A DNA stretch of 64,000 nt, from positions 1,376,001 to 1,440,000 of the forward strand of contig CAWJWJ010000002.1 of assembly GCA_963846575.1 (NCBI GenBank). The letters are read 5' to 3'. Below, piece after piece: positions 6,274 to 10,981 of the stretch. Every line of letters begins with the position of its first letter. The stretch's first letter is position 1. The position numbers and the translations under genes were made by a program. Origin of the DNA: an uncultured Nitrospiraceae bacterium (GTDB taxonomy: Bacteria > Nitrospirota > Nitrospiria > Nitrospirales > Nitrospiraceae). The notes beneath the pieces are model-generated. The model worked only from the letters and a program-made list of their open reading frames with translations. It was not told the origin of the DNA and did not search any database.

Positions 6274-6293
6274 GGGGCAGCCATGCGTGGTGG

Positions 6294-6887
6294 TCATGGC
6301 GCGTCGCAATGCGATCCGCCCGGTGATTCGCAGGAACAATCCAGGCAGCCGTGGACCGCGCATGTTCCACAGGCCTGCTCCACCTGACGCCGCAGGGCCT
6401 TCCTGGCCCGGTGTACGCGCACTGCGGCATTCTCGGCGGTGATGCCGGATTGCTGAGCCAGATCGCTCAGTGAACCGTTCTCCAGGTCCACGACCTGTAA
6501 CGCTGTCCGGTATTCGGGTTTGAGGGACTCCAGAAGACCTGACACGCAGTGGCAAATCTCCCGTCGAAGTTCCGCTTGCGGTTCCTGTACATCCGGAAAG
6601 TCACGTTCCCATCGCTTCAGGGCTCGTTCGGTTGCGGAGCGATGGCGGTAATGGTCTATGACGGCATTCCGCAGGATCCGATAAAACCAGGGCAGGATTT
6701 TTTCGTCCGCGACGCCCGCTCCGCGCTCCAAACCACGGGCCAGCGCGGATTGCAGAATGTCCTCGGCCGCGGCTCTGGATTCTACACGCCGTTCCAGGAA
6801 CGCTAGAAATGCGCGGTGTCCCTCCACCAGTGTAGCCGTGGCTTCAGGGGAGAGAGAGGGGGCGGACTTCGGCGGCATGTTCATCAT
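6294..6887 (-). CDS. ECF sigma factor, CorE-like (Cys-rich)
   Basis: sigma2 (AAEDILQ...WFYRILRNAVIDHYR), linker CHC, sigma4 (AAVRVHRARKALR), C-terminal CGTCAVHGCLDCSC. Confidence 0.85.
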   Translation of the reverse strand: MMNMPPKSAPSLSPEATATLVEGHRAFLAFLERRVESRAAAEDILQSALARGLERGAGVADEKILPWFYRILRNAVIDHYRHRSATERALKRWERDFPDVQEPQAELRREICHCVSGLLESLKPEYRTALQVVDLENGSLSDLAQQSGITAENAAVRVHRARKALRRQVEQACGTCAVHGCLDCSCESPGGSHCDAP

Positions 6888-6941
6888 GGCCTCAGATTAC
6901 CATGGCGTTCTTTGCACTGTCAGGTTTCGAAACCTCGCGGA

Positions 6942-7170
6942 CTGATTTGTATGACCGTCCGCTCCCGTCCTGTCCCCGCCTATCGAGGGCGGGGTTGCCG
7001 GACGTTTCCGGCTTGGCTCCGGTACCGCCGCAGCAGGGCGGAATCTGTGGCCGGACCAGGAGCCTGGTCATACGAATCAGCTTTTCCTCAGAGGTTGCTT
7101 TAATGCGACGGAATAGAGCAACCTGAGCCCTGGTAGGGTCTCCGGGCTCAGCCTGAGCGGTGGACCGCTC
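6942..7170. other. densely base-paired intergenic region (candidate structured RNA or miniature element)
   Basis: 15-bp inverted repeat 6942-6956/7066-7080 enclosing several hairpins, followed by three more hairpins. Confidence 0.45.
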
Positions 7171-7257
7171 CGTACGTACGTATGTAGCCTGTCTGTGACG
7201 GTTCAATGCTGATCGCGGCGGGACCCGGCAAACTGAAAGAGCGCGAGAGGAGCTGTG

Positions 7258-7878
7258 ATGAAGACCAGCCCGCTGGTTGAAGCGAGGGATGTGCGACTTC
7301 TGCTCCATGACAAACTGAAAATCGCGACCCGAGAATCCCACGCGACCTTCGAAGCCATGCTTCCCCTTCTGGATACTACGTTGACCAAGGATGCCTACGG
7401 GCAGTTACTCGCGCAGTTTTTGGGTTTTTATGGACCGCTCGAAGCGGCCATGGCCGGAGTCGGGCCACAAGCGCTGCGGGCCGAAGTCCTGCGACGCTCA
7501 AAGTTGCGTTGGCTGGTGCAGGATCTGCTCGCTCTGGGACGCAGTCAGGAAGAGATCGCCAGGCTTCCCCGCTGCCGCGACTTGCCTGATCTACTCCATA
7601 GCCATCAGGTGCTGGGAGCGCTTTACGTGGTCGAAGGCGCCACCTTGGGCGGTATCCTGATCACCCGACGTGTGAAACAGGCGCTCGGGGAAGAGGCCGA
7701 GCGGTGCAGTCGTTTCTTTCAGAGTTATGGTGCCGATGTACGCCCGATGTGGGACGCCTGTCTCGAGCTTCTGACACGGGCGGCGTCCGGACCAGAGCCG
7801 GAGCGTCAGATGATCCAGGCTGCCCGCGATACCTTCCACTGTTTTGAGCAGTGGCTCCGTCACGGCCGATCAAGATAA
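7258..7878 (+). CDS. bphO: biliverdin-producing heme oxygenase
   Basis: LKIATRESH (proximal His), LGALYVVEGATLGG motif; directly upstream of a phytochrome. Confidence 0.88.
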   Translation: MKTSPLVEARDVRLLLHDKLKIATRESHATFEAMLPLLDTTLTKDAYGQLLAQFLGFYGPLEAAMAGVGPQALRAEVLRRSKLRWLVQDLLALGRSQEEIARLPRCRDLPDLLHSHQVLGALYVVEGATLGGILITRRVKQALGEEAERCSRFFQSYGADVRPMWDACLELLTRAASGPEPERQMIQAARDTFHCFEQWLRHGRSR

Positions 7879-7882
7879 CGAC

Positions 7883-10198
7883 ATGCCGATGGCTGACCAC
7901 GACCACCACAGCATGATTACCGCGGAGAACGTCGATCTCAGCAATTGTGATCGGGAACAGGTGCAATATTGCGGTGCCATTCAGCCACATGGCGCATTGG
8001 CAGCGGTGGAGGAGGTGAAGTGGACGATCCAACAGGTCAGCGGAAATAGCCGGTCGATGTTGGGCCGGACACCCGAGGAACTGTTGGGCGCCGCGCTGGA
8101 GCGCCTGCTCGGCGGGGCGCAGCTGGAGCAGTTGCGTCAGGCCATGGCCGCCCAGCGAACCCTGAACTGTCCGCCCGTCAGATTGCTGACCGTGCGTCTC
8201 GACCGGGGCGCGGGGGCGATGGATGTCTTTGCGCATCGCAACGACGACGGAGTCTTGATACTGGAGTTCGAAGCCCTTTCGGAAGCAGGTCCGGACTCGT
8301 TACAAGATCTCCATAGCGAGGTGCGAACCAGTATTGCCGAACTGCAACGCACCGGATCGGTGCAGGAGTTTTTCGATCTCGCCGTCATGCGCATTCGTCA
8401 GTTTACGGGCTATGATCGTGTTCTGGCCTATAAGTTTTTGCCCGACGGGAGCGGCCGGGTCGTGTCGGAAGATCGCGAAGAGGGCCTGGAAAGTTATGTG
8501 GGACTTCATTATCCGGCCAGTGACATTCCCGAGCCGGCGCGACGCCTCTTCTCAAAAAAATGGGTCAGCCACCTCCCGAACGTGAGATATGAGCCGGTGC
8601 CGGTCATTTCCCACAGGACGAGCGAGGGGCCGATCGATCTGAGTTATGCCTTCATGCGGAGCGTCTCCGTCATGTACAGCGGTTATCTCCACAACATGGG
8701 TGTGCAGTCCTCCATGGTGTTGACGCTACTTCGGAACGGGAAGCTCTGGGGTCTGATCTCCTGCATGCATCATCGCTCGCCCAGGCATGTCTCATACCCC
8801 ACCAGGGTCACCGCAGAGGTCTTGGCGCATCTGATGTCGCTGACGATGGCGTCGAAAGAAGAACTGGAGGATCGCGAGGCTGTTGCCCACATGCAGAGCC
8901 TGACCGCCACTTTGCGGGAGACCATGCTGCAGCACCCGGAGCTTCCCGAAGGCCTGTTAAGGCATCAGCCCAATCTGCTGTCTTATTTCGGCGCATCCGG
9001 CGCCGTCGTCTGCCTGGATGGAGAGATACATCGGCTGGGCCACACGCCGGACGAAGGCCAACTCAAAGCGCTCTCGACCTGGTTGGGCGAGACCATGGAA
9101 GAGGATCAATTTTCAACGGACCGGCTCGCCGGGGTCCATCCTCCTGCGGCCGAATACGTACAGCAGGCCGCCGGTCTCTTGGCATTGCGGCTGTTCACCG
9201 GCGAGCCGCAGTTCATCCTCTGGTTCCGTCCCGAAGTCGAACGCACCGTGCATTGGGCCGGCGATCCCCGAAAGCCGGTCGCGATCTCTCGCGAAAACGG
9301 AGAGGAGCGTCTCATGCCTCGCACCTCCTTCGCGCTCTGGAAAGATTCAGTGCGCGGATCCTGTAGTCCGTGGCGCGAGAGCGAATTGAGCGCTGCCGCC
9401 GATCTTCGTCGAGCGATCGTCGATGTCGTGCTACGCACGAAGGCGATGGAGTTGGCCCGCTTCAAGGACACGCTCACCCGCAAGAATGTCGAGCTCGATG
9501 CCTTTGTCTATATCGCCTCGCATGATCTCAAAGAACCCTTACGCGGCATTCATCACTATGCCCGGTTTGTGTTGGAAGATTGTGAGGACAGGCTCGATGA
9601 GGACGGCAAGGGCAAACTTCGCACCATGGTGCAACTCACGGAGCGTATGGATCGACTCATTGACGACCTGCTGCACTACTCACGCCTCGGCCGGGAGGAA
9701 TTCGAAGCGGCACCGACCGATCTGCTTGCGCTGGTCACGGACGTCGTGCAGTCGCTCGCTCCACGATTACTGGAACGGGGCGTGACGGTGCGCATGCCCG
9801 CGTCGCTCCCACCGGTGACGGTCAATCCCGTCATGCTCCACGAAGTGTGCGCCAACCTCATCACGAATGCCATGAAGTACAACGACAAGCCGGAAAAATG
9901 GATCGAGATCGGCAGCCTCGCGCCAGGAACGTGGTCAAAAGGCGGGGAACCAGCGAGGTTGGAAGGAACGGTCGTCCTCTACGTGACGGACAACGGTATC
10001 GGGATCCCCCCAAAGCATTTCGATACGATTTTCCATATGTTTCGTCGCCTCCACGCGCGCGATGCCTTTGGAGGCGGCACGGGAGTCGGCTTGTCGATTG
10101 CCAGGAAAATTCTCGAACGGCATGGCGGGCATATTTGGGTGGAATCCCAGCCTGGACAGGGATCGACCTTTTACGTTGCACTGCCGGAGAACCGCTGA
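7883..10198 (+). CDS. bphP: bacteriophytochrome histidine kinase (PAS-GAF-PHY-HisKA-HATPase), atypical bilin pocket
   Basis: DLSNCDRE..IQPHG, PASDIP, WAGDPRK, PRTSF, SHDLKEPLR, DNGIG, GTGVGLSI. Confidence 0.93.
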   Translation: MPMADHDHHSMITAENVDLSNCDREQVQYCGAIQPHGALAAVEEVKWTIQQVSGNSRSMLGRTPEELLGAALERLLGGAQLEQLRQAMAAQRTLNCPPVRLLTVRLDRGAGAMDVFAHRNDDGVLILEFEALSEAGPDSLQDLHSEVRTSIAELQRTGSVQEFFDLAVMRIRQFTGYDRVLAYKFLPDGSGRVVSEDREEGLESYVGLHYPASDIPEPARRLFSKKWVSHLPNVRYEPVPVISHRTSEGPIDLSYAFMRSVSVMYSGYLHNMGVQSSMVLTLLRNGKLWGLISCMHHRSPRHVSYPTRVTAEVLAHLMSLTMASKEELEDREAVAHMQSLTATLRETMLQHPELPEGLLRHQPNLLSYFGASGAVVCLDGEIHRLGHTPDEGQLKALSTWLGETMEEDQFSTDRLAGVHPPAAEYVQQAAGLLALRLFTGEPQFILWFRPEVERTVHWAGDPRKPVAISRENGEERLMPRTSFALWKDSVRGSCSPWRESELSAAADLRRAIVDVVLRTKAMELARFKDTLTRKNVELDAFVYIASHDLKEPLRGIHHYARFVLEDCEDRLDEDGKGKLRTMVQLTERMDRLIDDLLHYSRLGREEFEAAPTDLLALVTDVVQSLAPRLLERGVTVRMPASLPPVTVNPVMLHEVCANLITNAMKYNDKPEKWIEIGSLAPGTWSKGGEPARLEGTVVLYVTDNGIGIPPKHFDTIFHMFRRLHARDAFGGGTGVGLSIARKILERHGGHIWVESQPGQGSTFYVALPENR

Positions 10199-10364
10199 TG
10201 CCCGCGCGTCCGGGGATGGCGGATCCTGGTGGTGACGATGGCGAGGAGCAGGTCAACGGTGTGAACAACTCCGTTAGATCTCGCGATCTCGATGCAGCGA
10301 TTCACGAGCGTCTACGGGAGGAGGGTGACAGCATGATGGTGTGGGGAGAAGGGGAGAGAGGGCA

Positions 10365-10781
10365 ATGAACGATTCGAGACGGATCGTGCTCCTGATCATT
10401 GACGATAATCCTGTCGATCGGGTCACCTATCGCCGCTACCTTGAGCAGGTGTCCGGGAACTATGAGGTACATGATGCGGTCGACATCGAAACGGGGCTGG
10501 AGGCGGCTCATCGGCTGAAGCCCGATTGTGTGTTGCTTGACCTGATGTTGAATCAGGAATCCGGATTTGAAATTCTCAGTACCCTCGGGGAACGTACGGC
10601 ACAGCTTCGGCTGCCGGTCATCATGCTCACCGGAGCCTCCTGGGTCGCGCTGAAAGATGCGGCCATGAAATTAGGCGCTCGCGCCTATTTACGCAAGAAC
10701 CACATCGATGCCGTGACGCTGGATCGCACGATCCGCGAGGTGATCACGAATAAAACCGGGCCTCAACCGCGCGAGGATTAA
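10365..10781 (+). CDS. single-domain response regulator (CheY-like)
   Basis: IIDDN, CVLLDLML (phospho-Asp), MLTG, YLRK; RBS-like GGAGAGAGGG upstream. Confidence 0.9.
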   Translation: MNDSRRIVLLIIDDNPVDRVTYRRYLEQVSGNYEVHDAVDIETGLEAAHRLKPDCVLLDLMLNQESGFEILSTLGERTAQLRLPVIMLTGASWVALKDAAMKLGARAYLRKNHIDAVTLDRTIREVITNKTGPQPRED

Positions 10782-10981
10782 AACCCCCGACCGGCGGCCC
10801 GGTCGCACCTCGAGAGTGGTGACAACCACCGACGTTCCGCCCTCCGGGTAGGCCAGACCCGTCCCACGCTGCTGCGCGGGTTCCTCCTAGTTGTCCCCGG
10901 GATTGCCTTCGCTACAATAGTATGGAAAGAGCGGGCTGTTCTGACCCACGGGCGTTCTAGAGAGACTGGAGAATGGCGCAG

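Follow-up and report, generated by a model that had tools for sequence, protein, structure and literature searches.

Can a bacteriophytochrome (BphP) that lacks the histidine on the alpha face of its bilin still work as a light-regulated kinase and, if so, with what photocycle? The question is raised by P0004, a phytochrome histidine kinase encoded in a stretch of an uncultured Nitrospiraceae genome (assembly GCA_963846575.1, contig CAWJWJ010000002.1, forward-strand positions 1,376,001 to 1,440,000), which carries tyrosine at the His260 site. This whole stretch of 64,000 nucleotides is the window, and coordinates are positions within it. Sequence comparison places P0004 in a widespread group of Tyr260 phytochromes in which we found no studied member, and whose mode of light sensing is probably not that of ordinary red/far-red sensors.

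P0004 is a knotted bacteriophytochrome with a substituted bilin pocket

A single open frame (window 7844-10198, plus strand) contains every motif on which the initial annotation had based its proposal of a new photoreceptor subclass; translation is assigned to the ATG at 7889, with an alternative ATG at 7883, two codons upstream. PAS_2, GAF and PHY score above the Pfam cut-off, HisKA and HATPase_c form the output, and the AlphaFold model (mean predicted local distance difference test score, pLDDT, 89.5) matches solved photosensory cores at template modelling scores (TM-scores) of 0.70-0.89, the highest among the matches listed being 0.89 for PDB 6BAO. The N-terminal attachment Cys is present and the GAF attachment Cys absent (Met at 259), the DIP motif and the PRxSF tongue are both in place, and a heme oxygenase gene and an output module are linked at the locus. 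Judged by architecture and attachment Cys, P0004 is a knotted BphP. It scores 242.9 bits against the NCBIfam BphP model NF041576, below the curated cut-off of 1040, a threshold that some ordinary BphPs may also fall short of. The residues first described as kept (attachment Cys, PASDIP, Arg254, Tyr263 and PRxSF) and as changed (His260Tyr, Pro258Val, Tyr216Phe, Arg222Ser, Ser274Val and an extra Cys) could all be located by codon in this one intact frame (Table 1).

Residue numbers are Deinococcus radiodurans-style labels. The pocket register was anchored on SaBphP1 (PDB 6BAO), whose alignment with P0004 is free of gaps, starting in the PASDIP region and running beyond position 290. Counting in SaBphP1 gives Asp208, Tyr262, Ser287 and Thr289, numbers that match those published (PMC6126659). 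In this register the P0004 Tyr falls on the His260 site and a Met on the His290 site. Because the register is gapless, the strand of the model runs unbroken through this Met and 6BAO gives the best TM-score, His290 is most likely replaced in P0004, with a one-residue insertion in the following loop. Aligned to proteins whose loop is shorter, HMMER and BLAST open their gap at the Met, so a small doubt attaches to position 290 and a shifted His is conceivable; of the two options first offered for His290, replaced or shifted, the former is thus favored and the latter keeps that small doubt.

With Tyr in place of the alpha-facial His260, and Met (subject to the register doubt) in line with SaBphP1 Thr289 where His290 would bond the D ring, P0004 is set apart from canonical red/far-red BphPs. 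Bathy BphPs have Gln at 201, a site that is Leu in 92% of the clade described below. Their His290 equivalent, which bonds the C-ring propionate (PMC6126659), is Met in P0004. The Cys260 of tandem-cysteine cyanobacterial phytochromes (TCCPs) is likewise Tyr, and the GAF-domain Cys259 of the dual-Cys bacteriophytochrome/Cph1 type is Met in P0004 and in 100% of the 118 clade members compared. Among the solved-structure alignments displayed (the best 4-5 of about 105 matches per search), none has Tyr at 260.

Tyr260 phytochromes form a multi-phylum clade

We compared P0004 with its best 119 homologs among 3106 passing threshold, P0004 itself aside, and found Met-Tyr at 259-260 in 118 of these 119, a sharing far beyond chance on these alignments; the closest named homolog among the matches listed is from Nitrospira moscoviensis (70% identity). 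When 50%-identity representatives were searched without a motif filter, 150 proteins were listed; 145 of them cover at least 80% of the core, and residue 260 in these is His in 117, Tyr in 23 and Cys in 5. We then mapped range by scanning a species-representative genome collection with a back-translated motif pattern, which selects for the motif and so gives range rather than conservation. It matched 104 stretches in Proteobacteria, Acidobacteria and Nitrospirota, the hosts including Hyphomicrobium, Methylocystis, Methylococcaceae, Rhodopseudomonas, Rhodopila, Rhodoblastus, Thiodictyon, Thiohalocapsa, Thiocystis and Bradyrhizobium sp. ORS 375. The motif lies within a long open reading frame (ORF) in 102 of the 104 matches, and the remaining two are frameshifted upstream. 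A search of the Atlas returned generic phytochrome clusters only, and the best of 135 plasmid records was 42% identical.

To build trees we pooled 383 aligned sequences, removed 42 for coverage and stripped the pocket columns. FastTree recovered a group of 220 that holds 218 of the 223 non-His260 sequences and two with His260 (Shimodaira-Hasegawa-like support 0.983), and IQ-TREE on 80 chosen sequences recovered the same group (Shimodaira-Hasegawa approximate likelihood ratio test, SH-aLRT, 96.2). The substitutions thus mark a clade even with the pocket left out, the outcome that the initial annotation had looked for in an alignment and tree. Five non-His260 proteins (P0152, P0200, P0218, P0230 and P0195) fall outside the main clade in the best tree. 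A single origin that includes them was not rejected on the IQ-TREE subset (approximately unbiased test, p=0.33), and convergence with the main clade is possible. These five proteins have Met-Tyr or Met-Cys at 259-260 and also lack Pro258 and Tyr216.

We next compared 118 Tyr260 members (80% dereplication, mean identity 49%) with 116 His260 relatives; since the group is defined by residue 260, that site was not counted as evidence. The attachment Cys, Tyr176, Asp207, Arg254, Ser257, Tyr263 and PRxSF are kept at 95-100%, with the switch residues Tyr176, Asp207, Arg254 and Tyr263 at 100%, PRxSF at 95-98%, and Ser257 as invariant as Arg254. Around these, the pocket has changed. Pro211 is found in 100% of members (Gln in 92% of relatives), Phe216 in 97% (Tyr in 89% of relatives), Val274 in 99% (Ser in 75% of relatives), His223 in place of Leu in 96%, and Pro or Thr in place of Ser276 in 99%; His30Gln (88%) and Ala288Ser (79%) are somewhat less general. 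Pro258 survives in only 5 of the 118, Cys289 is followed by Met in 81 members and by His in 21, a one-residue insertion follows position 290 in 116, and a six-site signature is present in 105. Two of the substitutions first proposed fail as marks of the clade: Arg222 is retained in 85% of members (Ser in 15%), and 12% have the extra Cys. Ser222 and the extra Cys occur together in 13 sequences, which the alignments place mainly in Nitrospira-like proteins, and so mark a subgroup only.

The clade is almost certainly maintained and functional. Across six Nitrospiraceae copies, the ratio of non-synonymous to synonymous substitution (dN/dS) in the GAF domain is 0.05-0.17 in 13 of 15 pairs with computable dS, with synonymous sites near saturation, and in 14 of the 15 pairs GAF differs less at non-synonymous sites than any of the other three domains. 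The GAF domain is under purifying selection. Together with the clade itself, the intact kinase motifs and the neighboring heme oxygenase and response regulator, this bears out the view of the initial annotation that the changes are coordinated rather than a product of decay, with kinase and oxygenase intact. That P0004 is a decayed or strain-private phytochrome is hardly tenable: the gene is absent from all 38 other genomes of the same genus, and about ten further loci in metagenome-assembled genomes (MAGs) look broken (about a dozen in all, possibly through assembly errors), but the frame in the window is intact, and at the level of the lineage such an origin is refuted by the homolog survey (118 of the 119 best homologs listed), the pattern scan (104 loci in several phyla), the fixed residues and the dN/dS values.

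A proposed biliverdin photoreceptor of reduced chromophore pKa

What would such a pocket do? The P0004 lineage very probably binds biliverdin and, with slightly less assurance, is photoactive. Published mutants make a shifted spectrum or altered photocycle plausible. His260 binds the pyrrole water, is described as "strictly conserved" and buffers biliverdin, and its mutants, Gln excepted, lose Pfr formation; the same 2025 paper gives it an ultrafast proton relay role thought central to phytochrome photochemistry (PMC12533598). His-to-Ala exchange in Agp1 and DrBphP roughly halves the Q/Soret ratio at pH 7.8-8 (PMC8570541), substitution of the alpha-facial His lowers bilin pKa (PMC11168458), and Cph1 H290A has a blue-shifted photoproduct (PMC12420706). 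In RcaE, Leu at the alpha-facial His site is the basis of a protochromic cycle and goes with a deprotonated state and a hydrophobic pocket (PMC11168458).

His260, Ser274, Tyr216 and mostly His290 are gone while the residues that couple isomerization to tongue and kinase are kept, and we therefore favor a light sensor that carries biliverdin at a reduced chromophore pKa and has one state blue-shifted or bleached, a reading for and against which we see the case as evenly balanced. The adjacent heme oxygenase would make biliverdin IXalpha, which would attach to the N-terminal Cys and be held by Arg254/Ser257 and Asp207. With Tyr at 260, the pyrrole water would lose its binding partner and the chromophore its buffer, Val274, Phe216 and Met290 would dry out the pocket, and Ser288 would probably assume the D-ring contact of His290. 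Chromophore pKa would then drop, leaving one photostate deprotonated and blue-shifted or bleached in place of a normal Pr/Pfr pair, in a cycle that, judging from the mutants, may be protochromic or Meta-R-like. The intact PRxSF tongue would relay isomerization to the kinase, which would signal to the neighboring regulator. By the same comparisons, P0004 may well be a functional light-regulated histidine kinase of a distinct knotted bacterial phytochrome lineage with a non-canonical photocycle, although we hold this at even weight with its contrary, and a clearly non-canonical spectrum could go either way.

Several points weigh against this reading. In two proteins nested in the clade, P0189 and P0199, the pocket is of the clade type (Phe216, His223, Met290) except for His260, through reversion or recombination, so this pocket tolerates either residue. 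The occurrence of Ser288 with a non-His290 residue in 91 of the 118 members, as in SaBphP1, and of Ala288 with His290 in 19 fits the proposed exchange of D-ring contacts, but these are counts over kin and hence not independent evidence for it. Six of 57 recognizable kinase H-boxes have no His, and at 45 of 80 loci the flanking DNA examined contains no heme oxygenase. In Cph1, His260 substitutions can abolish chromophore binding (PMC12420706), and SaBphP1 still performs the Pr to Pfr transition without His290 (PMC6126659). What single-site mutants do in other scaffolds may not carry over to a pocket that has co-evolved, and the accompanying substitutions could offset the loss and bring back a normal cycle.

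This last point leads to the possible, though less probable, alternative that P0004 is an ordinary red/far-red BphP in which the Tyr260 hydroxyl makes the C-ring propionate contact and Ser288 the D-ring contact, so that spectra would differ from canonical Pr/Pfr by a few nm only, or the difference would lie in the dark-reversion rate. Conservation of all switch residues and the tongue, and the recurrence of His260 within the clade, fit such compensation, as do the function of SaBphP1 without His290, an operon layout usual for BphPs (PMC6126659) and the fairly normal Pfr of Cph1 H260Q (PMC12420706). Tyr, however, should be unable to make the pyrrole-water contact or to exchange protons as His does, and His260 mutants other than Gln lose Pfr (PMC12533598). 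About ten fixed pocket changes are also hard to ascribe to drift, and the Tyr260 lineage is kept beside His260 BphPs in three of five genomes examined.

It is improbable that the protein senses something other than light. In such a sensor either Tyr260 or Met259 would serve as a ligand above the center of a bound tetrapyrrole (heme, a porphyrin or a metal-bilin), or the kinase would follow oxygen or heme levels by way of the biliverdin supply. In favor, Tyr260 is the defining residue of the group, Met259 does not vary among its members, its hosts include nitrifiers, methanotrophs and soil Acidobacteria, heme oxygenase requires oxygen (PMC4053972), and BphP apoproteins can bind protoporphyrin (PMC8570541). 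Against this, the residues of photoisomerization and tongue refolding (Tyr176, Asp207, Tyr263, PRxSF) are conserved as in His260 relatives, a heme-degrading enzyme would be an odd neighbor for a heme sensor, and some copies adjoin Mg-chelatase genes. Many of the hosts belong to phototrophic genera.

Less probable still is the earlier suggestion of a different bilin, for which the pocket would have been rebuilt to take either the beta or delta isomer of biliverdin or a bilin in reduced form. The genome (99.9% complete) holds one phytochrome and one PF01126 heme oxygenase, side by side, and a search of it for PF05996 (ferredoxin-dependent bilin reductase) found none. The window oxygenase has Lys and Tyr where Pseudomonas aeruginosa HemO has Asn19 and Phe117, all 34 aligned clade oxygenases have Lys/Arg and Tyr at these sites, and we take these residues to mark alpha-selective enzymes. 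The same 34 all keep the proximal His and the distal-helix motif. Neither Arg254 nor Ser257 varies in the clade, and around the D ring no additional basic residue has become fixed. The lost residues do cluster among those that contact propionates and the D ring (roles in part from PMC12533598 and PMC6126659).

A Cys260 offshoot within the clade

At 10 of 80 loci the Tyr260 gene has a tandem partner that encodes a second full-length phytochrome kinase, with Cys at 260, the hosts being seven Methylococcaceae or Methylococcales MAGs, Methylotetracoccus, Methylolobus and one acidobacterial MAG. In the pooled alignment, 14 Cys260 sequences fall inside the Tyr260 clade, and seven of the eight in the IQ-TREE subset group together (support 99). 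They mostly lack Tyr176 and have gained Arg or Lys at 272. The path from His to Tyr to Cys takes one base change at each step. By analogy with TCCPs, the offshoot is a candidate dual-Cys biliverdin sensor with a second thioether. A bolder proposal, which we regard as tentative and rather unlikely in full, is that the Tyr260 lineage comprises natural protochromic, blue-shifted biliverdin phytochromes and is the progenitor of this second-thioether lineage, and that the tandem pairs of Methylococcaceae and the acidobacterium are two-color sensors sharing one heme oxygenase. If true, bacteria other than cyanobacteria would sense short wavelengths using biliverdin alone, and the Tyr260 lineage would be the natural version of an outcome, green-absorbing phytochromes, that has been expected only from further mutagenesis (PMC11168458).

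A selected, multi-phylum lineage without His260 makes the claim of strict conservation testable in natural proteins, for which P0189 and P0199 are natural controls of His260 versus Tyr260 and for which there are cultured strains (Nitrospira moscoviensis, Hyphomicrobium zavarzinii, Methylocystis sp. H62, Rhodopseudomonas and Methylotetracoccus oryzae). Should the spectrum prove shifted, the lineage would widen the color range of biliverdin-based sensors, which serve as tools of optogenetics and imaging; should the cycle prove ordinary, the pocket would show how loss of His260 can be compensated.

Comparison with characterized phytochromes

Among known systems, SaBphP1 of Stigmatella aurantiaca shares with P0004 the PAS-GAF-PHY-kinase architecture, N-terminal Cys and bphO-bphP-regulator operon (PMC6126659), together with natural loss of His290, Ser at 288 and equal loop length. 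Unlike P0004 (39% identity), it keeps His260, Pro258, Tyr216, Arg222 and Ser274 and has Thr rather than Met at 290. DrBphP, Agp1, PsBphP and RpBphP2/3 share the fold, attachment Cys, Tyr176, Asp207, Arg254, Tyr263, PRxSF and kinase output at 30-36% identity, whereas the His260, Pro258, Tyr216, Gln211, Ser274, Ser276 and His290 of canonical BphPs are all replaced in P0004. FiDCB, the Fischerella dual-Cys bacteriophytochrome (PDB 9JRY), is the best sequence match among the solved structures listed (E 4e-122), has the N-terminal Cys in common and is described as a red/far-red sensor (PMC11880981). It differs in Cys259, His260 and a canonical His290, against Met259 and Tyr260 in P0004. TCCPs have a GAF-domain attachment Cys. 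They are cyanobacterial and have Cys260, whereas P0004 has no Cys at 259 or 260, and they resemble the clade in a non-His residue at 260 and conserved Val274 and Ser288, with blue-violet/yellow-orange cycles (PMC11880981). By this comparison the TCCP pocket is a parallel remodeling to that of the Tyr260 clade, with a blue-shifted photocycle. The green/red cyanobacteriochrome RcaE offers a works-like model (alpha-facial His replaced, hydrophobic pocket, one deprotonated state; PMC11168458) but is GAF-only, binds phycocyanobilin and has Leu at the site, while P0004 keeps the PAS knot, PHY and Asp207.

Searches of a literature collection with few subscription papers listed no paper on a natural Tyr260 phytochrome or a Nitrospira phytochrome, although clade members may figure in supplementary alignments or trees, and H260Y appeared in the literature searched solely in one unrelated cardiology paper. 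RpBphP4 and Bradyrhizobium BphP3 could be characterized members of the clade. Term searches of the accessible text of PMC8707292, PMC4053972, PMC6848086 and PMC10151467 returned nothing on the Tyr260 lineage.

Gene neighborhoods and origin of the segment

A phytochrome gene is present in 7 of 371 Nitrospiraceae genomes, the source genome included, and in none of the 38 others of its genus. The five other Nitrospiraceae genomes with a readable pocket all have Tyr260, the only type found among such genomes in the family; His260 phytochromes occur in four genomes of another family of the same phylum. At the syntenic site in the same genus, flanks are joined across about 100 bases (G475) or 260 bases (G059), compared to 4.7 kb here, and third-position GC is 0.65-0.71 in the segment versus 0.73-0.75 in the flanks. 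The simpler explanation is that the segment was gained through transfer. Its flanks bear no notable repeats. An extracytoplasmic function (ECF) sigma factor gene within the segment is probably a separate passenger, and none was found beside other clade members among the loci examined.

Table 1. Positions of the phytochrome locus, its pocket codons and associated features (window coordinates unless a locus is named).
Feature	Position	Strand	Remarks
Knotted phytochrome histidine kinase, Tyr260 lineage (P0004)	7889..10198	+	PAS_2-GAF-PHY-HisKA-HATPase_c, 769 aa, ATG 7889
Bilin-attachment Cys, N-terminal (Cys24 equivalent)	7946..7948	+	Kept in 98% of clade
Extra Cys at Pro32 position	7970..7972	+	12% of clade; Ser222 alongside in 13/14
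PASDIP segment	8513..8575	+	Asp207 kept; Gln211Pro, Tyr216Phe, Arg222Ser, Leu223His
Asp207 codon	8522-8524	+	
Phe in place of Tyr216, codon	8549-8551	+	
Ser in place of Arg222, codon	8567-8569	+	
Pocket helix and strand	8657..8725	+	Arg254, Tyr263 kept; Pro258Val, Met259, His260Tyr, Ser274Val, Ser276Thr
Arg254 codon	8657-8659	+	
Val in place of Pro258, codon	8669-8671	+	
Tyr in place of His260, codon	8675-8677	+	
Tyr263 codon	8684-8686	+	
Val in place of Ser274, codon	8717-8719	+	
Ala288Ser, Cys289, His290Met (most likely)	8759..8773	+	Then one-residue insertion
Met after Cys289, codon	8765-8767	+	
PRxSF motif of PHY tongue	9317..9331	+	Intact
HisKA phospho-acceptor His	9521..9523	+	
Heme oxygenase (BphO-like)	7255..7878	+	Upstream of kinase; proximal His and distal-helix motif intact
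Single-domain response regulator	10365..10781	+	Downstream of kinase; orthologue after kinase in other Nitrospiraceae loci
Segment missing at syntenic site in same-genus genomes	6276..10965		Boundaries approximate
ECF sigma factor, SigZ-like, Cys-rich C-terminus	6294..6887	-	Inside 4.7-kb segment; single copy in genome
Cys260 tandem genes	L078:2890-5196, L012:2582-4849, L054:2191-4482, L025:2974-5196		Also L027, L029, L061, L067, L077, L080

Across the clade, a heme oxygenase lies inside 35 of 80 flanked loci (27 of the 55 with full flanks). Mg-chelatase genes are next to the phytochrome in 7 of the 80 (L010, L016, L022, L031, L048, L056 and L069; mostly Hyphomicrobium), with phytochrome and regulator directly before the Mg-chelatase subunit genes; carotenoid-type genes precede the kinase in 4-5 of the seven, a neighborhood that, going by Pfam families, we read as a photosynthesis cluster. 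The Rhodopseudomonas loci adjoin potassium-channel-like and sugar-nucleotide genes in lists of ORFs of at least 70 aa, which short antenna genes escape, and the Rhodopseudomonas genome examined has three other phytochromes besides the clade copy.

Promoter and terminator matches at the window locus were at chance level only. A TrkA-type potassium-channel-like gene is close by in 14 loci, directly downstream in four Rhodopseudomonas loci, and a further Rhodopseudomonas palustris XCP phytochrome homolog (L123) has an altered DIP region and no PRxSF in its tblastn alignment. The phospho-acceptor His is missing at L033, L037, L045, L066, L070 and L071 (Rhodopseudomonas, Rhodopila and related copies). 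An FAD oxidoreductase gene lies near the phytochrome in L011, L063 and L076, in L063 with a cyclopropane-synthase-family gene as well; pairs of this kind are known from singlet-oxygen responses. The window also contains a small ParE-family toxin-antitoxin gene at 554-838 on the minus strand.

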